Assembly (NCBI GenBank): GCA_965243135.1
Contig: OZ251539.1
Span: 1,312,001 to 1,376,000, forward strand
Length of the DNA: 64,000 nt
Source of the DNA: Alphaproteobacteria bacterium
Lineage (GTDB): Bacteria > Pseudomonadota > Alphaproteobacteria > MPNO01 > UBA830
Reading direction: 5' to 3'
Shown here: positions 4,498 through 17,450 of the stretch, piece after piece
Numbering within the stretch: position 1 is the first letter of the stretch
Layout: every line of letters starts with the position of its first letter
Translations under genes and position numbers: made by a program
Notes under the pieces: generated by a model
Databases searched by the model: none
What the model was told of the DNA's origin: nothing
Seen by the model: the letters and a program-made list of their open reading frames with translations, nothing else

Positions 4498-7194
4498 TCA
4501 GAACGAGAGTCGATAGCCTGCAAGCAAGGTCAATTCCGGAGTGCGGCCGACCGTGTGGTCGGGCTGGAACGATACCGTCGCCCCGAAACGCGGCGTGCCG
4601 CCTATCGCGTCTGCAGGCCGGCGCCAGTCCGCGCCGATGTCTATCTGGCGTCCGGACGGAGTTAGCGGCGCGTTCACGACGCTGCGCACCACCTCGCCCC
4701 GCTTGGTGCGGCCGGTAGGAACGGCAAGCTGCATCCGGCCTCGCTCCACCCGCAAAGGCTGGGACAGCGAAAAACGAAGCCGGTCGCCGCCTTCGAAAGC
4801 GCGCTCCGCGGAAAGGGAAAACGCGGAAGTGGCGACAGTGGACACCTCCTTGACCATGCCGCCCGACGCATCGGAACCGGTCACGCCCAGTTCCGCTTCG
4901 GCGCGTATTCCCCAGTCGCCGACAGCCGTGTCGAAACCGGTTCCGGCGAAGGCGACGCCCGAGGAGAGCTTTCCGAACGCGCCGCTCGCGTTCGTGCCCA
5001 GCGAGCTTCGGAATTCGCGCAACGCGCCGAATTGCAGGCCGAGGGCGGAGCTCGGCGGCTGCCATGCAAGCACCACGCCCGCTTCGGGAACCCTTACCTC
5101 ACCCCCCAATCGGTTGTTCAACGCCGGAGCGGCGGCGAGCGCCGACGCCCGGAGTTCTCCTTCGCCGAGGGCCAGCGAAAGGCCGCCGTAATCCACCGGG
5201 ACCAGAGAGGCGTGTCCGCCGGACCACCATTCGCCTGCCGTCCGGTTTATTCCAAGCTGCATGCGCGTGGACGCGAAGGGCGTTTCGACGATCCCGTCGA
5301 GGGAGGCGCCCGCGCGAAGGCTGTCGCGCCGTTCCGATCGCATGAACCGGGTCAACCGGTCTTCAAGGGCCGGCCTGGCGGCGGTATGCGTGAATCCGTC
5401 CAGCCCCAACCAGAACGGAGCGTTCAACTCGTCGAAGACCGCCACCTCCCGGCCCCTGAACGCCGCGGCGAGGGCGTTGCCCGCAGGGCCACCGCTGCGC
5501 AGCATGCTCGACGCCGCGGCCACCCGTTTTCCGGACAGTGCGTTTCCAAGCGCGATGGTCATCCCTCCGACGGGCTCCGTAGCGGCGTCGAGGTCCATCA
5601 ATCCCCATCCGTGCGTGGACGACAGCTCGCATGTGGAGCGGTCTCTGTCGGTATCGAGGTGTTCGGGACATTGCTCTCCCTCCGCTACCGAGTCGGGCCG
5701 GGTGGCATCGCTGTCCCGGTCAGCGGTGCGGTAGAGGCGGGTCAGGATTTCGGTGTTGCCCATTTGGCCGCGGAAGTAGTGCTTCAGGACAGCGAGGCCG
5801 CCCGCCACGAGGGGTGCCGCGAAAGACGTGCCCCGCATGCCGCGGATATAGCCCCTTACTGGTCTGGAATCCGTAGGTGAGGCCGGGCCGAAATAGGCTA
5901 CCAACATGTCTTCGCCTGGAGCGGCGATGCACCATTTGGCGGCGATGCCGCACCGGTTCGAGAACCCGGCGAGCGTACCGTCGCGCCGTGTCGCCACCAC
6001 CGAGACCGAATGTTTTCGCAGCCCTTCGATGTGTACGGGAAGAGCGTTGAGGACCGCCGGGGAGGTGGCATCGATCGTCCCCTCGCGGGACAAATCGTCC
6101 CCGATGCCCGTTACAACGATATTGACGCAATTGTCCGTCCCATCAGTACACTTCTGCCCATGGTCGTTGCCGGCCGCCCAGACAAGCAAGGTCTTGTCCG
6201 CGTCATCCTTGCTGGATTGCGCCGCCGCCGTGATGGTTTCGTCGAGGGCCCTTTCGAGGACCATCCTGTCGTAATTTTCAATCAGGCCCTGAGCAGCGAA
6301 ACTCATGTTCAGGATGTCCACGCCCTGGTCGGGATCCAGCGCGGCGCGAAGCCGAGGGCCCAATGCGCCGGTATCGTAATTAGCCAGATTACTGATCGAA
6401 ATCGGTTCGTAGGGCCTGTCAGAACCCGATCCCAACGGGATGGCATACATCTTCAAGTTGGCGCCCCAGGCGATGCCGTGAAAATCCCATTGTTCGAACC
6501 CATGCCCAGATGGCACCCCTCGGTCCCGCTGGGCGGCGATCAGGCTCGCCACTGCCGTACCGTGACTGAAGCTGCTGCCGTCTTCGTCTTCCGCTCCGAG
6601 CATCGTCTCAGTAACTCGGAGCTGATCGAATTCCCAATGATTTTGATCAATGCCTGTGTCGATAAGCCCCACCGTTACCCCGGTTCCAGGTGCCCCAAGT
6701 GCCACAGCAGCGACCTCTCTTTGCCTTTGCGCGAGTTTGGCGTAGGCATTCGCTGCATGGGATGCGCCCAGACCCCAATTTCGGGAAATCGATCCAAATT
6801 GGGTACGATATTCTTGGTGCTTCCTGTAGTCGTCGGCTGTGGGCGGCGGGTTTGTGGGCGGCGGGTTTGTGGGCGGTGGTGGCGGTGATGCTGCGGGCGG
6901 CGGTAGATCGATCAAAGAGATCGCTAGGTCGGGTGTAAGGGCGGGAGCTAGAGGATCTGTCGGCCGCTCTTCCTCTTCCTGCCGCTCTTCCTCTTCCTGC
7001 CGCTCTTCCTCTTCCTGCCGCTCTTCCTCTTCCTGCCGCTCTTCCTCTTCCTGCCGCTCTTCGCTTGTCGGCGCGACGCCGCCGCCGCCACCCCCTCCGC
7101 ATGCGGCCAACAGCGGTCCGCCAACGATGCAGAGCGCTAGCAGCCACGCTGCAATCCGGCCGTTCGAGCGCTTCGTCACTTGGGCGAGTGTCAT
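4498..7194 (-). CDS. Lipoprotein S8 (subtilisin-like) serine protease with probable C-terminal beta-barrel
   Basis: Lipobox LLAAC-GGGGGG; triad LIDTGID / SHGTAVA / GTSFAAP; AAGND oxyanion motif; beta-rich C-terminus ending YRLSF. Confidence 0.88.
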   Translation of the reverse strand: MTLAQVTKRSNGRIAAWLLALCIVGGPLLAACGGGGGGGVAPTSEERQEEEERQEEEERQEEEERQEEEERQEEEERPTDPLAPALTPDLAISLIDLPPPAASPPPPPTNPPPTNPPPTADDYRKHQEYRTQFGSISRNWGLGASHAANAYAKLAQRQREVAAVALGAPGTGVTVGLIDTGIDQNHWEFDQLRVTETMLGAEDEDGSSFSHGTAVASLIAAQRDRGVPSGHGFEQWDFHGIAWGANLKMYAIPLGSGSDRPYEPISISNLANYDTGALGPRLRAALDPDQGVDILNMSFAAQGLIENYDRMVLERALDETITAAAQSSKDDADKTLLVWAAGNDHGQKCTDGTDNCVNIVVTGIGDDLSREGTIDATSPAVLNALPVHIEGLRKHSVSVVATRRDGTLAGFSNRCGIAAKWCIAAPGEDMLVAYFGPASPTDSRPVRGYIRGMRGTSFAAPLVAGGLAVLKHYFRGQMGNTEILTRLYRTADRDSDATRPDSVAEGEQCPEHLDTDRDRSTCELSSTHGWGLMDLDAATEPVGGMTIALGNALSGKRVAAASSMLRSGGPAGNALAAAFRGREVAVFDELNAPFWLGLDGFTHTAARPALEDRLTRFMRSERRDSLRAGASLDGIVETPFASTRMQLGINRTAGEWWSGGHASLVPVDYGGLSLALGEGELRASALAAAPALNNRLGGEVRVPEAGVVLAWQPPSSALGLQFGALREFRSSLGTNASGAFGKLSSGVAFAGTGFDTAVGDWGIRAEAELGVTGSDASGGMVKEVSTVATSAFSLSAERAFEGGDRLRFSLSQPLRVERGRMQLAVPTGRTKRGEVVRSVVNAPLTPSGRQIDIGADWRRPADAIGGTPRFGATVSFQPDHTVGRTPELTLLAGYRLSF
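6963..7062. repeat. 18-bp tandem repeat (GCCGCTCTTCCTCTTCCT) x~5.5 encoding (QEEEER)n
   Basis: Direct reading; in frame within the S8 N-terminal linker. Confidence 0.95.
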
Positions 7195-7646: not shown

Positions 7647-8130
7647 GTAAGCGTTCGCACCCGGGGACGAAAAAACTCGTCTGGGGACTGCTCACGGGAT
7701 TTTGACCCTTCGTCCTCATGGAGTTGGCGATACCGGATTCTTGCTTCGAAACGACAGACGGGCAGGGGGCTTTGCTGCTCGCAGCGACCCTCCGGCGGCG
7801 GGACGAGGCGTTGCGGCGGCGGGATGACGCGCGTCAAGAAGCGGAAGCGTTGCGCTGGAAGGAAGTAAGCGCGCGGCAGCAGGCGGCGTTCTGGCGGCGC
7901 GTCGGGCGCGAGACCGCGCTGAGGCGGTGCGCAAGGAACTGGAGCGCCCAGCGTCTCCGGTGAACAAACTCGAACGGGAGGTGAGCCGACTCCGGCATGG
8001 CGAAATCGAGAGCCGCTTGCGCTGCACGTCTTGAAATGGCTTTCAGGGCGCACGGCCCGATTCTGGCACGGAAAACTGCGAATTTTCCGCGCCGGGAACG
8101 CCGTTTTCTCGGATTCCGCCCCAAGCCGCT
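7647..8130 (+). mobile_element. IS66-like left-end remnant
   Basis: Starts GTAAGCGTTCG; degenerate coiled-coil ORF MELAIPDS; paralogous to 16499-16990. Confidence 0.7.
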
Positions 8131-8169
8131 ACCCCGGCGTGGGATCGCCCTGCGGCGTAGGCCGGCCCC

Positions 8170-8235
8170 TTGAAATCCGGCGAACCGGTCCTATATGTAG
8201 TTATGCACGGTAGTTTGTGCACAACTCAAGGGAGG
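8170..8235 (+). promoter_or_regulatory. Putative sigma70 promoter, inverted-repeat operator and RBS of the MBL operon
   Basis: TTGAAA-N16-TATATG; AGTTATGCAC-N8-GTGCACAACT; GGGAGG before ATG 8244. Confidence 0.45.
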
Positions 8236-8243
8236 CACTGAAA

Positions 8244-9389
8244 ATGGCTATCGACCCGCCTGATCAGGGGTTCATCTTCTGGCCGGTTGGCACCGGCGAC
8301 AGCACGACCATTCGCGTGGCGGAGAAAGTCTACCTGCAGGTGGACCTCCGGCACATGGCGAAATCCGAAGACGATAAGGACGCGGCTTGGCCCGTGATCG
8401 ACGAGTTGATCGAGATACTGCCGAAGCGGGATGGCGGGCCGTTCCTATCGGGGTTCGCTCTTACCCATCCCGATCTGGACCACTGTCAGGGCTTCGAGGA
8501 GCTCAACGAGCGCGTGTTTATCTCGGAGCTCTGGATGTCGCCAAGGACGTTCCGTGAAATCCGTGAGGACGAGGATCTTTGCGACGACGCGCAAGCCTTC
8601 CACGACGAAGCGATGCGACGCGTTGAAGCGACCATTGCGGCCGGTGGCGATCCTGGGCGCGGTGACCGGATTCGTATCATTGGTTACGACGACCTGCTTC
8701 AGGAGCCCGATTTCCAGGGCTTCCCCGAAGAATTCCTGTCCGTTCCGGGCCAAACCGTCACGACCCTCGACGGTGAAGAGCTCTCCGGGACATTCGAGGC
8801 GTTCGTTCACGCGCCCTTCAAGGACGACAGCTTTGGCGATCGGAACGAATGCAGCTTGGCCTTTCAGATAACTCTTCGCGACGGAGACGGCGTCGGCCGG
8901 GCGCTGCTCATGGGCGACCTCAATTACCCGATCGTCCGGCGCATCTTCGATCGTAGCGAGGCCGAAACGCTCGCCTGGAATGTGCTTCTGGCGCCCCATC
9001 ACTGCTCGAAGTCCGTCATGTACTGGAAAGACGAGGACGAGGAAACTCTGAAGCCCGAGATGGTGCGGGATATCGGTAATGCGGCCCTTGATCCGGGATA
9101 CGTTGTGTCGAGCTCGGAACCGGTGCCAGCGCGCAACGAGCCGGGAGACAACCCGCCGCACGCCAAGGCGAAGAGGCAGTACGAGCGCATCGTCCCCAAC
9201 GAGTTCCTGTGCACCCACGAACATCCGGACAAGAAGAATCCCGAACCGATCGTCTTCGAGGTCAGCGAGAACGGCTTCGCATACGTCGGCGAAAGCGAAG
9301 CGAGTAAGTCAATGGGCGACGCACTGAGAGCGGCCGGTGTTGCCGTAGCCCCTGCTGAGGCGGTCGGATTTGGTCGTGGCGCTGAGTGA
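8244..9389 (+). CDS. ComEC/Rec2-like metallo-beta-lactamase-fold hydrolase (probable nuclease)
   Basis: VGTGDST, THPDLDHCQG, NECSL, LLMGD, PHHCS; low-complexity tail ending VGFGRGAE. Confidence 0.88.
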   Translation: MAIDPPDQGFIFWPVGTGDSTTIRVAEKVYLQVDLRHMAKSEDDKDAAWPVIDELIEILPKRDGGPFLSGFALTHPDLDHCQGFEELNERVFISELWMSPRTFREIREDEDLCDDAQAFHDEAMRRVEATIAAGGDPGRGDRIRIIGYDDLLQEPDFQGFPEEFLSVPGQTVTTLDGEELSGTFEAFVHAPFKDDSFGDRNECSLAFQITLRDGDGVGRALLMGDLNYPIVRRIFDRSEAETLAWNVLLAPHHCSKSVMYWKDEDEETLKPEMVRDIGNAALDPGYVVSSSEPVPARNEPGDNPPHAKAKRQYERIVPNEFLCTHEHPDKKNPEPIVFEVSENGFAYVGESEASKSMGDALRAAGVAVAPAEAVGFGRGAE

Positions 9390-12300
9390 AGGACAACGGA
9401 TTGCGCTTGCACAACTCCGGCGCATCGCCGACGCAGGTAGTTCCCCCCTCCGGATCATCGGTGTCGACGAAGAACCGGCCCCCGATGCTTCCCTGAACGT
9501 CGATATCACCCTCGATTGCGCGCGTCACAAGCGCATCGAGGGTGGCCTGCCGCTGCACGACCGAGAAGGCGTCACGCTCTCGATCCCTGTGGATTTCCCC
9601 TTCACTCCGCCATCCGTCGACACCGCCCACACCCGATTCCGCGGCTTTGGGCACGTACAATGGGAACAGCGTCTCTGCGTGTACTTGTCCGCCGAGACAC
9701 AGTGGATCCCTTCGCAAGGCATGTTCGGATTCTTGGCGCAGATCGACGAGTGGTTTCGACGCGGAGCCCGCAACGAACTCGACCGCCCCGAAGGCCCGTT
9801 GCATCCGCCGGTTGCCTATACGGCTGCCTCCACGGCGATCTGCGTGAATGCCGATACCCCGGACCGCGACACTTGGCCATGGTTCGGCGCGGCCGTACTG
9901 TCCCGGACCAAGTCCGACCTTCTCCAGGTCGACGCTTGGCGGCCTATACACGAGGTCCCGGACGATCAGCCGTTCGCGCCGGCTGCGCTGCTCGACTTTG
10001 AACTTCCGTTCGAATACCCCCGAACCGTCGATGATTTGCTCTGCTACCTTGAGAGCAGAGGTAACCCCGGCGATAGCTTGTTCAGGGACCTGATGCTGGC
10101 CTCCGACCGTGTCCCTGCGGGCACGCCGTTGTACGTAGGAATCGGCGCTCCCTCGCGCGGCATCGCGGGCGATGTTCATCAACGACGCCAGCACATCGCA
10201 TTCTGGGAAATCGAAGCGGCCGACGTCGCCACGCTGCGCACAGCCTCCCTCGCCCGCCGATTGAGCAATCTCTACAATGATCAAAATACCCCGACGGTGA
10301 TTTATGCATTGATCGACGACGGATTGAAAGCCCACCGCCAATGGCGTCGCAAAGCCTGCGTGCGCTGGTGCCGCGTGATTGAGAATCGGCCTGAGATCGT
10401 TACCCGACGAGACGAAGGTACGCCGATGGACTGGTTTCGCGGCAAACGGGTCGCGCTCTGGGGTTGCGGAGCGATCGGCGGGCTCATCGCGGAGCACCTC
10501 GCACGAACCGGGGTTGGCCAACTCACGCTCTACGATTATGGCCGTGTCACCCCGGGCGTGTTGGTGAGACAAAACTTCTCTGCAATCGACACCAATGAGA
10601 CGAAGGTCGCCGCGCTCGCGAGCCGGGTGCAATCGATCGCACCCGATGTCGCAGTAACGTCCAGATGCGAAGACATCATTTCTCAGACGTTGGCAGGAAC
10701 CGATTGGGACGCGGATGTCGACGTCATCATCGATGCGACCGCGTCCCTGTGGGTCAGAAGCAAGCTCGAGGCCGTACTCAAAGACCACGAACGGCGCATT
10801 CCAATCGCATCGGTAATGATGAGCGCTACAGCGCGACACGCCATGGCTGTCGTTGTCCCGCCCGGATATCAAGCTGGGCCCCTTGACGTCCATCGGCGTC
10901 TCGGTCTGGTCGCCGTGACACGGGACTGGTTGAGCGAATGGGCCAAGGCCTTCTGGATATCGGACGCCATTGAAGGCCTCCGTCAGCCTGAACCTGGATG
11001 CTCCGATCCCACCTTCGTGGCATCTCACGCCGATGTCGCCAGCTTGTCCGCACGAGCACTCAACGCGTTGGCTGAGAGACTTGCCGAGCCCGGCGACGCC
11101 GCCAGCGCCTTCCTTATTGCCCCGTCATCCGGCAACCCCCAACATCATTTTCGGTTTCCCCCGGATATTCGCTGGGTTGCCGGCGGACTCGACTTTCGGG
11201 TGTCGGCCAACGCCTGGCGGGACATGACCGGCTGGATCCGCACCGGCGCCCGTGAACGATCCCCGGAACACGAAACAGGCGGGTTGCTGTTCGGACAATT
11301 CGACGAGACTCTGGGAATCGCATGGGTGACAAACGTCAGTGGTCCGCCGCGGGACAGCAGTTTCTCCGCAGAGCGCTTCGTCTGCGGAACGCACGGTACA
11401 ACGGATCTGTGCGAGGACTACGAAGAGCGGACCCACCGGATCGCGCGTTACGTCGGAACCTGGCACTCCCATCCGATCAGCCCGGCCCGGCCCAGCGCCA
11501 CGGACTACAACGGCATCGCCACCATCTTCGCGAGCGCGCCTGATAACGGCGCTCACCAGCTCATGGTCATCGTCGGACATGCAGCCGAACGGGAGCCGCA
11601 ACTCGGGGCCTACGCGTTCGAGAAGCGAGATTTGACCAAGCGCCGCGCCGGACTTGCAATGGCAGCGCACGGCGGAGTGACGACGCCGCCTCCCTTGGCG
11701 CCGCTTCCTAAAAAGATCGGGTTATCGCTGTCCGGCGGCGGATCGCGCGCCGTCGCATTTCATCTCGGCACGCTTCGGGCTCTCGAAGACCTCAAGTTGC
11801 TTGATGAGATCGATGTGATCTCCGGTGTATCGGGTGGATCGATCATAACCGGCCTAATGGGCTATACCGAGGCTCCTTTCGCTCAAATCGACCGCAACGC
11901 GGTCGAATTCCTCCGACGCGGCCTGGTAAGGCCGGCACTCAGAAAACTCCTGAATCCCGCACGCACTGCACAGCTTCTGTGGAACCTTGCGGTCGTGGCC
12001 GTGCCGACAGCGGCAACCGGGGTTATCGCATGGTCGGCAAGTCGGCTCGCTTCGTTCTTTCCCGTGCTTCGCCATGCCAGCGACATCGTTTCGCGCTGGT
12101 CGTGGCCGCTTCGATGCCATTATTCGCGCACACATGTTCTTGCAGACGCGATCGCCGACGTAGTTGGCGCGCAAAACTGCGACGCGCCCACACGCCAAGG
12201 CAAGTCAATCGTCTTCAACGCGTGCGAACTGCGGACCGGCACCGCGTTTCGTATGAGCAACGAACGCTTCGGCACTTGGAGATATGGCTGGGCGCCCGCG

Positions 12301-12870
12301 AGCGAACTCCGAATCGCCGACGCAGTCGCGGCCTCGGCCGCCTATCCACCACTCCTGCCGCCGTTCGACTGGAGCCGTCCCTTCGAGCGAAACGGAAAGA
12401 CCAAGATGCACCGCGTGATAGTCACCGACGGCGGCGTCTTCGAGAACCTCGGAGTAAGCGTGATGGAACCGGGGCGGGATGTTGCAGTCAGCGTGACCGC
12501 CTACAACCCCGACATCATCATCGCGAGCGACGCGGGAGCCGGGCAATTCACTGGCGAGACCGTACCCATCAGTTGGCCAATACGAATGATCCAGGTCGTC
12601 GCTGCGGTCATGCGCAAGATTCAGGACGCTACCAAACAGCGGCTGCACGACCACGCGAAATCCGGGCGACTTGACGGCTTCATCTACGCGAATCTGGGCC
12701 AGGTCGATCAAAGGGTGCCTTTGAAACCCGCCAACTGGGTGGATCGCGAGGAAGTGATCCATTACCCAACCGACTTCTCCGCAATGTCGGAAGAAAACAT
12801 TCGGAAGCTTTCCGGACGTGGTGAAGCTATCACTCGGGCACTGGTGACGCAGTATCTGCTCAGCGACTGA
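9376..12870 (+). CDS. E2-like / ThiF(E1) / JAB / patatin-like phospholipase fusion protein
   Basis: E2: FPFTPP...HVQWEQRLCVY; E1: WGCGAIGG, D...VRQNF, IIDATAS, EPGCSDPTF; JAB: ETGG...WHSHP...PSATD; patatin: SGGGSRA, GVSGG, DGGVFEN; GTG start overlaps the MBL 3' end. Confidence 0.9.
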   Translation: MALSEGQRIALAQLRRIADAGSSPLRIIGVDEEPAPDASLNVDITLDCARHKRIEGGLPLHDREGVTLSIPVDFPFTPPSVDTAHTRFRGFGHVQWEQRLCVYLSAETQWIPSQGMFGFLAQIDEWFRRGARNELDRPEGPLHPPVAYTAASTAICVNADTPDRDTWPWFGAAVLSRTKSDLLQVDAWRPIHEVPDDQPFAPAALLDFELPFEYPRTVDDLLCYLESRGNPGDSLFRDLMLASDRVPAGTPLYVGIGAPSRGIAGDVHQRRQHIAFWEIEAADVATLRTASLARRLSNLYNDQNTPTVIYALIDDGLKAHRQWRRKACVRWCRVIENRPEIVTRRDEGTPMDWFRGKRVALWGCGAIGGLIAEHLARTGVGQLTLYDYGRVTPGVLVRQNFSAIDTNETKVAALASRVQSIAPDVAVTSRCEDIISQTLAGTDWDADVDVIIDATASLWVRSKLEAVLKDHERRIPIASVMMSATARHAMAVVVPPGYQAGPLDVHRRLGLVAVTRDWLSEWAKAFWISDAIEGLRQPEPGCSDPTFVASHADVASLSARALNALAERLAEPGDAASAFLIAPSSGNPQHHFRFPPDIRWVAGGLDFRVSANAWRDMTGWIRTGARERSPEHETGGLLFGQFDETLGIAWVTNVSGPPRDSSFSAERFVCGTHGTTDLCEDYEERTHRIARYVGTWHSHPISPARPSATDYNGIATIFASAPDNGAHQLMVIVGHAAEREPQLGAYAFEKRDLTKRRAGLAMAAHGGVTTPPPLAPLPKKIGLSLSGGGSRAVAFHLGTLRALEDLKLLDEIDVISGVSGGSIITGLMGYTEAPFAQIDRNAVEFLRRGLVRPALRKLLNPARTAQLLWNLAVVAVPTAATGVIAWSASRLASFFPVLRHASDIVSRWSWPLRCHYSRTHVLADAIADVVGAQNCDAPTRQGKSIVFNACELRTGTAFRMSNERFGTWRYGWAPASELRIADAVAASAAYPPLLPPFDWSRPFERNGKTKMHRVIVTDGGVFENLGVSVMEPGRDVAVSVTAYNPDIIIASDAGAGQFTGETVPISWPIRMIQVVAAVMRKIQDATKQRLHDHAKSGRLDGFIYANLGQVDQRVPLKPANWVDREEVIHYPTDFSAMSEENIRKLSGRGEAITRALVTQYLLSD

Positions 12871-14190: not shown

Positions 14191-14383
14191 GCGGAAATCC
14201 CGATCCCGTAAATAAACCAGAGATTTTTGGCAAAAAAGATCCGCACCCGTCGGCAGGCGTGGGAAACAATGATCAAAATTTATGCCGCAAATCAGGGACG
14301 ACCGGCTTTGCAGCTTGACAATGGAACGCTTGGTGCAGTATTGGCCATACGAGGCCCGCAATTGTCACGAGGGAAGATTCGGT

Positions 14384-16495
14384 ATGAAAGCCGTTCGGTT
14401 TCGTGTTCAGAATTTCCGCAATATCGATGATAGCGGCTGGATACCCTTGGAACGGGTAACCGCTTTCGTTGGCCGAAACGAGTCTGGAAAGACCTCGTTG
14501 CTCAAGGCGCTTCACAAGTTCAATTCAGCTACACCGGAGCCCTATGATGAGCCCTATGATGCGCAACGAGAATTTCCTCGGGATCGGTATGTGCGCGACT
14601 ATGTCGCCAAAGGCTCGAAAGGCGAAGACTGGCCCGTCTGCTCGGTCGAGTTCGAACTTCCAGAACACCTTCGGGCGGAAATCGGTCAGATCCTCGAACA
14701 GAGTGGAGAACCACCGACCAAGACCACCCTGACACGCCATTACGATGACTCGCTCGCGTTCGAGTATACGCCGCCGCTGGACGAGCGACCGCTTGCGCCC
14801 GATCCAGTGATTGCCGCGCTCGATAAGTTTGCTTCGAGCGCCCGTCGGCTTGAGGTGCCGGCCGAGGGCCGGAAAGAATTTACGGCAAAACTGCGCAAGG
14901 AATTGACCGAATGGGCGACGGTTTGGAAAGACAAGCTGAAGAATGTCGTCGATCTATGCGGCGATGAGGGAAAAGCGCTCTTGACCGAGCTTCGAGAAGA
15001 GAATGAAGACAATATCATCCCGCAGATTGCCGACATCGTAGAAGCGCTTCAAGCCGCTATCGAACCGGTCTTGGGCGCTGCAGAAAAAGGTTCAATTACT
15101 AATCGGATTGACGAGTTGATCGAGGACAATCTTCCCGTTTTTATTTATTTCGAGAACTACGGTATTATCAGAAACGCTATCTGGCTACCCCGTCTTGTTG
15201 CTGATTTAGGACGAAGCGAGATTAGTCCTCGTGTGCGCTCGATCAGTGCTATGTTCCGCCATGTCGGTCTTGATCCGGAGCAGATTAGAGACCTTGGCTA
15301 CGAACGGGTGGGGCAACAACGAGACCGTGGGCAGATGTCGGCAGATGTTTCCGCCGATCTGAAACGTAAGGCAGAGCGTGCGATTCTTCTGAACGCGGCT
15401 TCGCTCGACATTAGCCAAAAATTTTCGGCGTGGTGGTCGCAACGCCGTCACAAGATTCGTTATCAAGCCGATGGCGATTATTTCCGTATCTGGGTCGCCG
15501 ATGACCGCCGTCAGGACGTGGAAATTGAACTCGAATCTCGTAGCAGAGGATTTCAGTGGTTCTTCTCATTCTACCTCGTATTCTTGGTTGAGTCCGAGCA
15601 CTTCCACAAGAATGCTATTTTATTGCTTGACGAGCCGGGTCTGCATCTTCACCCGACCGCGCAGCAAGAGTTGATCCAATTTTTCAAGAAACTTTCGGAA
15701 ACCAATCAACTAGCTTATACGACTCACTCGCCCTTCCTGATTGACGGAGAGCATTTGCATCGCGTGAGGCCGGTCACGGAAGACGACAGTGGCCGGTGCC
15801 GGATAACGGCGGAGACGTGGTCGAAGGACCGTGAGACGATTTTCCCGCTTCAAGCTGCCGCAGGATACGCGATGGTTCGTGGTCTCTTCCAGCATCGAAA
15901 AAATGTTCTGGTCGAAGGAATAACCGACTTTTATTACCTGCATGCGCTGTCCCAGCAATGCGCGAGATCCGGTCGAATCGCGCTGCCGGACGATATCTAC
16001 ATAACGCCGTGCGGCGGCACGAAGCTTGTCGGATACCTTGCTTCGCTGTTTCTCGGCCAAGAGGTTCGACCATTGATTCTTCTTGATGGCGACCAAGCTG
16101 GCCAAGTCCGTAGGGACGCGCTGATGAGTGAGCTATACGCCGGGCACGATTCCGAAATCCTGATGCTTGATTCCGTGCTGAATCGTGCGGAACAGGAGGT
16201 CGAAATCGAAGACATCCTCGGCGAGAAAATTGTTCTTGAGGCATTTGATGCCGTCATTGGCGGGGCTCCCGCTATGAATGGAGAAAACTTGCCGGCTGGA
16301 AGCGTTCCGAGCCGGATAAAGGCAGCTGCAAAGGATCAGGAGATCGACCTTCCAGGCGGCTGGAAAGCGTCCGTTGCCTTGCACCTCGTGTCGGATTGGG
16401 CTGAAAAGGGGACGATTCTTCCGGACCACGTTCTCGATACTGCGGTCCTATTGTTCACTGCGATCAACGACAGATTTGAAGGGGTGAAAGTCTGA
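14384..16495 (+). CDS. OLD-family ATP-dependent nuclease (ABC ATPase + TOPRIM)
   Basis: VQNFRNI, GRNESGKT Walker A, SRGFQWF signature, LLLDEP, TTHSP, TOPRIM VEGITD and DGD. Confidence 0.85.
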   Translation: MKAVRFRVQNFRNIDDSGWIPLERVTAFVGRNESGKTSLLKALHKFNSATPEPYDEPYDAQREFPRDRYVRDYVAKGSKGEDWPVCSVEFELPEHLRAEIGQILEQSGEPPTKTTLTRHYDDSLAFEYTPPLDERPLAPDPVIAALDKFASSARRLEVPAEGRKEFTAKLRKELTEWATVWKDKLKNVVDLCGDEGKALLTELREENEDNIIPQIADIVEALQAAIEPVLGAAEKGSITNRIDELIEDNLPVFIYFENYGIIRNAIWLPRLVADLGRSEISPRVRSISAMFRHVGLDPEQIRDLGYERVGQQRDRGQMSADVSADLKRKAERAILLNAASLDISQKFSAWWSQRRHKIRYQADGDYFRIWVADDRRQDVEIELESRSRGFQWFFSFYLVFLVESEHFHKNAILLLDEPGLHLHPTAQQELIQFFKKLSETNQLAYTTHSPFLIDGEHLHRVRPVTEDDSGRCRITAETWSKDRETIFPLQAAAGYAMVRGLFQHRKNVLVEGITDFYYLHALSQQCARSGRIALPDDIYITPCGGTKLVGYLASLFLGQEVRPLILLDGDQAGQVRRDALMSELYAGHDSEILMLDSVLNRAEQEVEIEDILGEKIVLEAFDAVIGGAPAMNGENLPAGSVPSRIKAAAKDQEIDLPGGWKASVALHLVSDWAEKGTILPDHVLDTAVLLFTAINDRFEGVKV

Positions 16496-16498
16496 CAT

Positions 16499-17450
16499 GT
16501 GAGCATTCGCTATACAGGGAACGAAAAAATTTGTCTGGGGATTGGTCACGGGATTTTGACCATCCGTCCTCATGGAGTTGGCGATACCGGATTCTTTCTT
16601 CGAAACGACCGACGGGCAGGGGCTTTGCCGCTGGCAACGACCCTCCGGCGGCGGAACGAGGCGTTGCAGCAGCAGGACGACGCGCGTCACGAAGCGGAAG
16701 AGCGTTGCGCTGGAAGGAAGTAAGCGCACGGCAGCAGGCGGCGTTCTGGAAGATGCAGCGCGTCGGGCGTGAGACCATGCTGAAGCAGCGCGCAAGAAAC
16801 TGGAGCGCCCGGTGTCTCGCGAACTCGAACGGGAGGTGAGCGGCCTCCGGCAGGGCGAAATTGCAAGTCGCTTGCGCTGTACGTCAAAAAATGGCTCAAA
16901 GGTGCGGCCCGATTCGGGCACGGAAAATCGCGAATTTTCCGCGCCGAGAACGCCGTTTTTGCAGCTTCTACCCCAAGCCGCTCCGCGACCGCAAACGATC
17001 GCCCGCGTTCGGACATCGCTTCGGGTTCGCCGCGCCGCATCAGGCCTGTCTGCAAACCGGAAATATGCTTTTGTTCCGTGTTCGCCAGCCTGCCTTGGGG
17101 CCTGCCGACGGCTGGCCGGGGCGGTCCGCGGGAGCGCCGAACGGACGGCAGCCGACAATAATCGCGCGGCGCAAGCGCCTCGGTTGAGGGCGCGGCATGA
17201 CGAGCGCGGCGATGCTCGTCTGAAGGCACGCAACCGCAAGCTCGTCCAGGACGGGTACGGCAACGAACGTTCATGCCCGCGACGCCCGGGCAGCGGCCCG
17301 ACAACGCGAGAGCCTCGTCGTCGGGGCCGAAAGCCGGGGTCGCCGTCGAACGGGCGTGCGCTGCGCAACGCCGGTGGAGCTTCTTGAGCCGGAGGAGCGT
17401 CGCTGTTCGAACTGCGGCAAGCCGCTCCGGCGAGACCGGGCGTGGCCCGA
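16499..17450 (+). mobile_element. IS66-like remnant (left end plus degraded transposase 5' part)
   Basis: GTGAGCATTCG end; copy of 7647-8130; downstream RGRKPGS..G and EERRCSNCG zinc-finger fragments. Confidence 0.65.

Follow-up and report, generated by a model that had tools for sequence, protein, structure and literature searches.

What kind of system arises when a protein of the metallo-beta-lactamase (MBL) fold is encoded directly ahead of a single chain in which an E2-like domain, an E1-like domain and a JAB peptidase domain are joined to a patatin-like phospholipase? Two genes of this kind overlap by 20 nt on the forward strand of the window considered here, i.e., the whole stretch of 64,000 nucleotides (positions 1,312,001 to 1,376,000 of contig OZ251539.1) from an alphaproteobacterial genome (Table 1). 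A preliminary description of this DNA had reported both genes as overlapping and intact, which they are, and had proposed an anti-phage system with two effectors, a nuclease and a membrane-lytic lipase, controlled by conjugation or cleavage. We find that the core formed by the MBL protein and the E2-E1-JAB protein is the known, named and catalogued anti-phage system 6A-MBL, and that the phospholipase module, whether fused or encoded by a third gene, is a new part, present neither in the curated models nor in the papers found. By sequence comparison the locus belongs to a divergent, patatin-associated subclade of 6A-MBL, in which a patatin regularly makes up the third component. We consider it rather probable, by analogy with related systems, that the three modules act together in immunity, with the MBL protein conjugated via its C-terminal tail, E2-E1-JAB acting as the switch and the patatin as a membrane-lytic effector.

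A 6A-MBL core extended by a phospholipase

Because both proteins pass NCBIfam cut-offs, the MBL protein matching NF058524 at 300.2 bits (cut-off 220) and the fusion protein matching NF058523 (cap2_3) at 356 bits (cut-off 320; residues 60-734, the match stopping before the patatin), they can be assigned to the anti-phage 6A-MBL system, and the E2-E1-JAB protein is called Cap2_3 below. The organisation is that of 6A-MBL, with an MBL gene directly upstream of, and overlapping, the gene for a single E2-E1-JAB protein, with no gene for a ubiquitin-like protein (Ubl) or a cyclase, and with an MBL protein whose C-terminus carries a glycine and a short extension behind it. The primary experimental study of the system is said, in the papers that cite it, to be that of Van den Berg et al. 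2024.

In the passages available of Iyer, Burroughs & Aravind 2006, the core appears as row 6a of Table 1, with a two-gene organisation, and in the passages available of more recent texts 6A-MBL is mentioned as a defence of Pseudomonas aeruginosa that has ubiquitin-related parts (10.1101/2025.09.30.679545; PMC13276650) and counted among the known jumbo-phage defences (10.1101/2025.09.30.679545). The preliminary description was therefore right that MBL plus E2-E1-JAB operons had been noted before, but they are more than noted, being a named family with curated models. The described system is one of two genes and three domains, and its NCBIfam model stops at JAB, whereas a patatin of approximately 400 residues follows the JAB domain here. 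Neither patatin nor phospholipase occurs in the passages available of Iyer et al. 2006, patatin is equally absent from those of a preprint of the Corbett laboratory (10.1101/2024.11.21.623953), and a full-text search (supplements and Van den Berg et al. 2024 being outside its scope) found no paper that joins a patatin with an E2-E1-JAB/MBL system. Thus, of the architecture that might already have been catalogued, the core is, as 6A-MBL, but the phospholipase fusion is in no paper found. The locus further differs from canonical 6A-MBL in the tail of its MBL protein, which reads VGFG rather than (A/H)G, and in a Cap2_3 only 36 bits over the cut-off.

Catalytic sets are intact in all five enzymatic modules

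Pfam resolves the fusion protein into Prok-E2_A, ThiF, Prok-JAB and Patatin, in this order and all above cut-offs, in agreement with the parsing proposed from the letters, and all the motifs quoted at that stage (HVQWEQRLC, GCGAIGG, RQNF, EPGC, WHSHP..PSATD, GGGSRA, GVSGG and DGG) are present in the translation. The JAB residues are E635, H699-x-H701, S709 and D712; the Patatin match spans residues 785-1030 and includes the motifs G789-G-G-x-R793, G819-x-S821-x-G823 and D1020-G-G. When the query is aligned with 109 homologues of 1100-1200 aa (n = 110), the residues invariant in every sequence are H95 and C103 in the E2 domain, D389, R400, Q401, K412, D455 and C544 in the E1 domain (where G365, G367 and G370 are also invariant), H699, H701, S709 and D712 in JAB, and G789, G790, S821, G823, D1020 and G1021 in the patatin, which was thus rightly described as catalytically complete. 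E635, G791 and R793 are invariant in a wider alignment of 47 sequences, down to 30% identity. In the MBL protein (numbered from the M at 8244), the metal motif H75-x-D77-x-D79-H80 is an HxDxDH variant of the canonical HxHxDH, and D19, D34, H75, D77, D79, H80, D225, H252, H253 and C254 are invariant among 63 sequences from both subclades. The catalytic sets are intact in all five enzymatic modules.

The AlphaFold 2 (AF2) model of the whole fusion protein has a pLDDT (predicted local distance difference test) of 83.7 and a pTM (predicted template modelling score) of 0.77; low pLDDT is confined to the E2 loop 139-152 and the C544-bearing E1 loop 535-547, and the linker between JAB and patatin has values of 67-90. 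Its top structural match is Cap2 (7to3_A, E 1.5e-21 over 655 columns), which is also the top PDB sequence match (E 4.4e-7, E1 part only). PADLOC models derived from CBASS (the anti-phage signalling system based on cyclic oligonucleotides) match E1-E2 at 263 bits as well as JAB, and the JAB part has a weak match to NF050170 (Cap3-like); the likeness to Cap2, Cap3 and CapV-like parts seen earlier is borne out. The patatin module has the GGGxR, GxSxG and DGG catalytic architecture of PlpD, ExoU and VipD, the closest solved patatins by profile (PlpD 5fqu, E 5e-6; ExoU, 8e-5; VipD, 4e-4), and its similarity to these and to cPLA2-delta is limited to the first ~60 residues. Unlike them, it has no secretion or host-cofactor context and shares a chain or an operon with a conjugation enzyme. 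A match of 25.4 bits to the PADLOC CBASS phospholipase model is confined to module residues 16-63, no specific NCBIfam model covers it, and no known ligand-sensor domain was found in it (Patatin being the only Pfam family, with weak matches of PADLOC and NCBIfam models to the N-terminal motif).

The hydrophobic insert reported within the patatin is real, its best 19-residue Kyte-Doolittle window scoring 1.78 at residues 869-887, with at least 1.6 in this region in 83 of the 110 aligned sequences. It is modelled as helices 863-896 and 898-908, is itself the least conserved stretch of the sequence and is a possible membrane-binding element.

The fusion is genuine and widely distributed

A word-indexed search of 5.8 billion proteins gave 350 matches; in all of the best 120 of these 350 (56-100% identity, 911-1187 aa), ThiF, JAB and Patatin lie in one chain, with Prok-E2_A as well in 114, the other six being shorter at the N-terminus. 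An assembly artefact, i.e., the loss of a stop codon between JAB and patatin, is ruled out by these homologues together with 36 independent fused metagenome loci, and the preliminary description's concern that close homologues might all carry such a stop proved unfounded. When residues 1-760 were compared by phmmer with 1.84 billion cluster representatives (50% identity), 4581 matches had E ≤ 1e-3, and for 373 of them E was ≤ 1e-30. The best 150 of the 4581 show a bimodal length distribution, with 75 proteins at 730-830 aa and 40 of at least 950 aa, and 38 of these 40 have a homologue of the patatin module. Two long relatives, P0263 (1017 aa) and P0286 (985 aa), have C-terminal extensions of ~250-290 aa without a Pfam family, which may be further effector types.

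Within the same phylum the family is sporadic, being matched in 11 of 401 sampled genomes. Seven of the 11 are canonical, with a Cap2_3 of 744-815 aa at 435-673 bits and an MBL protein 27-29% identical to this one, and no patatin was found within 1.5 kb of these seven loci. In genomes G233 and G006 the MBL protein is 50-56% identical to this one and the patatin is encoded separately, directly downstream. G233 has the genes for MBL (380 aa), Cap2_3 (768 aa) and patatin (399 aa) in succession, each stop overlapping the following start, and in G006 Cap2_3 is split by an inserted element, itself duplicated nearby.

Close relatives are also found in distant lineages. Twelve genome loci, 61-79% identical over the best segment, come from metagenome-assembled genomes whose labels name Alphaproteobacteria, Gammaproteobacteria, Longimicrobiales and the cyanobacterial Prochlorococcaceae, and the MBL gene is directly upstream in 11 of them, the twelfth (L011) being cut by a contig end. 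Two actinobacterial plasmids carry split forms whose RefSeq annotation is generic only: p_4-4_B of Rhodococcus pyridinivorans (L111, 1592-6470) encodes a hypothetical protein (the MBL protein, 45% identical), a ThiF-family protein and a patatin, and a plasmid of Streptomyces sp. NBC_01220 (L112, 1685-6616) encodes MBL, ThiF-family, Mov34/MPN and patatin proteins, with JAB as a separate gene. A tblastn search of a phage collection gave no match to the system. Four of the twelve genome loci are damaged, the MBL gene being interrupted in L003 and the fusion gene being affected by a transposase-like ORF (open reading frame) in L006, a frameshift in L010 and a truncation in L012; transposase-like ORFs interrupt the MBL or Cap2_3 gene in L003, L006 and L030. 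Such damaged copies fit costly or toxic defence genes, and some cases may be long-read errors.

The patatin is a regular third component in a swappable slot

Metagenome contigs were scanned with a profile of the E2-E1-JAB core, and the 80 loci obtained were classed by tblastn and reading frame. Fused patatins account for 36 of them, and in 24 a patatin gene of its own follows immediately downstream; 13 loci lack a patatin (a class restricted to loci with 1 kb or more of downstream flank) and 7 could not be assessed. Linkage to Cap2_3 thus holds in 60 of 73 assessable loci, without any change of position or orientation. By tblastn, 72 of the 80 have the MBL gene directly upstream, and in five loci where tblastn finds none (L055, L057, L066, L067 and L096) an ORF of 307-366 aa occupies that place. 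The wider survey of the architecture and its neighbourhoods that the preliminary description had envisaged thus recovers it repeatedly. The four-domain polyprotein is real here, but it is just one state of fusion that a system of three modules can take, the patatin being split off in 24 of the 80 loci and JAB itself being separate on an actinobacterial plasmid. The fused module is homologous to the patatin genes of split systems (38-47% identity), whose overlap with the Cap2_3 stop is mostly 4-20 nt.

These short overlaps mean that fusion needs only a single small change, as would be expected if the patatin were an independent defence or toxin gene that had lost the intervening stop codon and had no mechanistic coupling to its neighbour; defence genes do cluster, and an OLD-family gene lies next door. 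Such an incidental fusion is nonetheless very improbable in view of the linkage in 60 of 73 assessable loci with constant position and orientation, its extension across phyla to actinobacterial plasmids, the lack of any other conserved flanking gene, and the coherence of the full-length model in pTM and in the JAB-patatin linker.

Other modules occupy the place of the patatin in at least 6 of the 80 loci, either a metallophosphoesterase or a protein with four transmembrane (TM) segments. A calcineurin-like Metallophos domain is fused after JAB in three 1158-aa proteins (L058:3285-6761, L059:4004-7480 and L061:2761-6237). Homologous proteins of ~265 aa with 3-4 hydrophobic (predicted TM) segments stand in the same slot in two loci (L064:6286-7083 and L108:6338-7030), the same family occurs behind Cap2_3 in two canonical 6A-MBL loci (L018:656-1450, - strand; L021:3630-4427, + strand), and a protein of the same topology follows Cap2_3 in L107 (3808-4458), so that 3-4-segment proteins of ~216-265 aa are present in all five. 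This family, which has no Pfam family, is a candidate membrane effector. Neither the metallophosphoesterase and 4-TM alternatives nor the VGFG tail as a family signature appear in any paper found or in the curated models. DUF3375 and deaminase genes downstream in L093 and L090 resemble neighbouring systems.

The history of the slot was followed on two FastTree trees, quick reconstructions with many unsupported forks whose event counts are a rough lower bound. On a 127-row tree of E2-E1-JAB (24 partial sequences omitted), the patatin label changes 23 times, at least 18 of the changes being forced by well-supported branches, a scatter that arises because split forms exist. On a tree of 64 distinct core proteins whose context is known (ten loci dropped, 7 without flank and 3 with a stop inside the match), there are at least 5 changes between fused and separate forms and 12 across the three states. 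A single origin of the fusion is rejected, fused and split forms being interleaved on both trees. Given this interleaving and the presence of other modules in the same place, the position behind JAB can be regarded as a swappable effector slot.

The MBL protein has a putative donor tail and a predicted docking site

No Pfam family was found in the MBL protein, and a sequence-profile search of the PDB gave no solved relative. Its AF2 model (pLDDT 90.3, pTM 0.88) is low only in the last ~30 residues (about 350-381; means of 55, 51, 46 and 36 in blocks of 10 residues). According to Foldseek, the closest PDB fold is the beta-lactamase-like domain of ComEC (9ic4, E 2e-11, TM-score 0.75 on target), followed by the phosphorylcholine esterase Pce and then by PNGM-1 and RNase J. 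The model thus points to a phosphodiesterase-type hydrolase, possibly a nuclease; the nuclease role is a fold-level lead only, the match in fold fixing no nucleic-acid substrate.

The low-confidence end of the protein is also where a conserved motif lies. The tails of nine MBL proteins adjoining fused genes read A-V-G-F-G-x-G-x-x, and G[FY]G occurs in the last 12 residues of 59 of the 64 distinct MBL proteins from metagenome loci (VGFG in 53), followed by no residue in 4 of the 59, one in 7, two in 27, three in 12, four in 8 and five in 1. Four of the remaining five have x-[FY]-G, and the fifth appears truncated. The motif is present in 117 of 120 close MBL homologues and in the plasmid copies of Rhodococcus and Streptomyces (PVGFGR and QIGFGAA), and in canonical 6A-MBL tails 0-6 residues come after a final (A/H)-G. 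A disordered tail in which a conserved glycine precedes a few variable residues is the hallmark of ubiquitin-like donors, and such glycine tails are also found on the CD-NTases of type II CBASS. From its sequence, the VGFG tail looks like a ubiquitin-like donor end, and this resemblance leads us to infer that the E1 domain adenylates the tail glycine after JAB has trimmed the extension. Tail and operon position together suggest that the MBL protein is the conjugated donor, corresponding to the CD-NTase, rather than just another effector.

This bears directly on the earlier two-effector reading, in which an MBL nuclease and a patatin lipase would kill in parallel, both regulated by the conjugation machinery. 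The nuclease domain of ComEC is indeed the closest solved fold, RNase J appears lower in the ranking, and an invariant metal-ligand set accompanies the intact catalytic set of the patatin. However, the MBL protein is constant while the third module varies or is missing, a pattern more in keeping with a sensor or donor at the core of the system than with one member of an interchangeable effector pair, its VGFG tail suggests that it is the conjugated species, and its second-best fold match is a phosphorylcholine esterase, so that a nucleic-acid substrate is not established. Two parallel killers are accordingly unlikely: the defence part of the earlier proposal is reasonable, and the nuclease survives as the ComEC-based lead, but the MBL protein is probably more than a second effector.

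A donor has to meet the conjugation enzyme, and a complex was modelled from the MBL protein and Cap2_3 residues 1-600, with an own alignment for each chain. It scores 0.80 against 0.00 for the best of three controls, a mark that 58 of 80 solved complexes attained, as did 2 of 110 mismatched pairs, these calibration counts holding only roughly because own alignments were supplied. The runs share at least 91% of contacts, with a partner pLDDT of at least 83. The predicted interface joins E2 residues 15-126 with MBL residues 271-285, 311-320 and 352-365; on the E2 side it surrounds the near-invariant R65, E66, H87 and R89, and MBL segment 311-320 adjoins a conserved NPPHAKAK motif. The E2 domain is thus the predicted docking surface for the MBL protein.

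Relationship to CBASS and other conjugation-based systems

The locus shares with type II CBASS an E2-E1 homologous to Cap2, a JAB homologous to Cap3 (weak match), an effector of the patatin class and, by analogy, a conjugated enzyme with a flexible C-terminal glycine tail, here predicted to be the MBL protein. It differs in that no CD-NTase is encoded in the genome, E2-E1, JAB and effector lie in one chain, the putative donor is a hydrolase-fold MBL protein, and, by the PADLOC CBASS phospholipase model, the likeness of the patatin to CapV does not extend past the oxyanion motif. The SMODS/CD-NTase family (PF18144) has no match among the genes neighbouring the system, as had been stated from the letters, nor anywhere in the 6.1-Mb, 98.8%-complete genome, and membership in CBASS or Pycsar is therefore rejected.

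The Bil/Bub systems likewise combine E1, E2 and JAB-type chemistry in defence-island contexts; however, they encode a separate beta-grasp Ubl, according to the passages available of 10.1101/2024.11.21.623953, whereas neither a conserved third ORF nor a Ubl Pfam family is found here. No ORF family besides the two genes is common to at least 3 of the 12 genome loci, and the small ORFs flanking the system have no Pfam match, Ubl families included (a fold-level search of small ORFs was not made), in line with the earlier statement that no small Ubl gene is nearby. A hidden Ubl or third conserved gene is thus rejected at the sequence level.

In its available passages, the same preprint states that such pathways conjugate their signalling enzymes to unknown targets and terms the MBL protein a 'signaling enzyme' (10.1101/2024.11.21.623953). 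This label is compatible with a CBASS-like scheme in which an MBL protein primed by conjugation makes or destroys a small molecule (e.g., a nucleotide derivative) that switches the effector in trans, as are the operon position and glycine tail that the MBL protein shares with the CD-NTase of type II CBASS, an effector slot as swappable as that of CBASS, and fold neighbours that are phosphodiesterases and nucleases. Against this, 36 of the 80 loci fuse the effector to the conjugation enzyme, which is needless for a diffusible messenger, Pfam, PADLOC and NCBIfam reveal no known ligand-sensor domain in the patatin module, and enzymes of the MBL fold are hydrolases, not synthases. We regard a diffusible signal as improbable. 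The frequent fusion of effectors to the conjugation enzyme, without a recognisable ligand sensor, argues instead for direct control with no diffusible messenger. A more general and tentative possibility, to which we give less weight than to the three-module system itself, is that 6A-MBL as a whole is a messenger-free pathway in which conjugation is the signal, the MBL protein is its own donor and its transfer switches on the effector in the slot; in such a pathway the target of transfer would possibly be the enzyme-effector fusion itself or a phage protein.

Genomic context of the locus

The coordinates of the system and of the features around it are collected in Table 1. The start codon of the MBL gene, ATG at 8244, was set by gene callers, is the one used by an identical 381-aa database protein and agrees with the start given in the preliminary description.

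Table 1 Features of the 6A-MBL/patatin locus and its surroundings (positions in the window; residue numbers refer to the respective protein)
Feature	Position	Strand	Details
Direct repeat of ~480 nt, left copy	7650-8135	+	
Shine-Dalgarno-like AAGGGAGG	8228-8235	+	8 nt ahead of the MBL start codon; read off the sequence
MBL-fold gene	8244-9389	+	381 aa; ORF listing opens at 8217
VGFG tail motif, then R-G-A-E	9363-9386	+	C-terminal end of the MBL protein
Cap2_3-patatin fusion gene	9370-12870	+	1166 aa; TTG start
E2-like domain (Prok-E2_A), residues 49-164	9514-9861	+	Pfam 66.1 bits; H95, C103
E1 domain (ThiF), residues 358-491, to Cys loop PEPGC544S	10441-11001	+	Pfam 71.7 bits
JAB/JAMM metallopeptidase, residues 629-737	11254-11580	+	Pfam 37.3 bits; PADLOC JAB 74 bits
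Patatin-like phospholipase module, residues 785-1166	11722-12867	+	Pfam PF01734 70.9 bits (cut-off 27.7)
Hydrophobic helical insert in patatin, residues 863-908	11956-12093	+	Kyte-Doolittle; AF2 helices
OLD-family protein	14282-16495	+	737 aa; downstream of the system, in a patch with GC 0.51-0.57
Direct repeat of ~480 nt, right copy	16505-16985	+	84-88% identical to the left copy

The two-gene system has a GC (guanine plus cytosine) content of 0.60-0.63, compared with 0.65-0.68 in housekeeping genes close by. Its OLD-family neighbour combines an AAA_15/AAA_21 ATPase with OLD-like_TOPRIM (Pfam), is matched by the AriA, Old, PtuA and GajA models of PADLOC, the best being AriA, Old and PtuA, and is probably a second, single-gene defence system. 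Both lie in an 8.85-kb segment between the two ~480-nt direct repeats. The repeat is assembled from dispersed elements that match the genome 44 times, about 30 of these matches being copies of a ~70-nt unit, and the pair could indicate where a cassette was inserted or where recombination is frequent. In the window, no tRNA, tmRNA or Rfam element was found that could serve as an island boundary, and a scan for promoters and terminators gave nothing exceeding shuffled sequences.

A housekeeping or stress role, in a membrane-lipid or protein-modification pathway, would place the locus outside immunity. Patatins also work in lipid metabolism, and a role of this particular subclade in defence is read from its sequence. 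A non-immune function is nevertheless highly unlikely, considering the sporadic distribution (11 of 401 genomes), the high identity across phyla (61-79% in the best segment), the plasmid-borne copies and those disrupted by insertion sequences, the location in a lower-GC patch beside an OLD-family gene with repeats on both sides, and the curated NCBIfam models that name the family anti-phage.

Two further genes of the window were observed in passing. An S8 subtilase-like protein of 898 aa (gene 4498-7194, - strand) has six 18-nt tandem repeats at 6938-7080, which encode (EERQEE)n near its N-terminus. At the window edge, a patch of 47% GC holds a 229-aa ORF (2-691, + strand) with an open 5' end and no Pfam or PADLOC family, whose GGMSGGG motif we take to be reminiscent of serine hydrolases.

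A proposed mechanism and its implications

Taken together, the three modules can be arranged in a working mechanism modelled on type II CBASS. JAB would first cut off the few residues beyond VGFG of the MBL protein, and the exposed glycine would be adenylated by the E1 domain and passed on via thioesters, at C544 and then at C103 of the E2 domain, before the MBL protein is joined to its target. JAB would also be able to undo this conjugation, and would thus both trim and reverse. Upon infection, the conjugation switch would free the activity of the attached or co-translated patatin, which would attack membrane phospholipids by means of its hydrophobic insert and abort the infection. The patatin would thereby be the killing effector of an abortive-infection response, and the subclade a defence against phage.

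Several observations weigh against this reading or narrow it. Cap2_3 passes the NF058523 cut-off narrowly (356 vs 320 bits) when compared with the 435-673 bits of canonical members, and identity between the MBL protein and its canonical 6A-MBL counterparts is only 27-31%. The last 16 residues of the MBL protein, including VGFG, are not confidently placed and do not enter the E1 pocket in the predicted complex, which therefore supports docking and not the adenylation step; moreover, a solved Cap2-CD-NTase complex exists, so that the score could be in part a memory of Cap2, although the fold of the partner is unrelated. The overlapping start of the next gene could partly explain the conservation of the last MBL codons, but the VGFG tail is kept across MBL/Cap2_3 gene spacings of -19 to +37 nt, and its persistence where the genes do not overlap indicates that it is not just a by-product of the overlapping start. 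In 7 of the 13 loci of the absent class (L081, L083, L090, L093, L101, L105 and L106) there is no clear third module, and an effector in the slot is thus not obligatory.

For the 6A-MBL family, these findings add a candidate effector and a candidate donor end, in an architecture that is widespread, and lay out the roles of donor or sensor enzyme, conjugation switch and killer for testing. Both the split plasmid forms of the culturable Rhodococcus and Streptomyces and the compact two-gene fused form provide tractable constructs. The direct fusion of an effector to E2-E1-JAB argues for the absence of a second messenger, and the system would then differ in logic from CBASS. If 6A-MBL is indeed a messenger-free pathway with conjugation as the signal, this would be the first ubiquitin-like transferase that physically gates a membrane-lytic lipase in bacteria.

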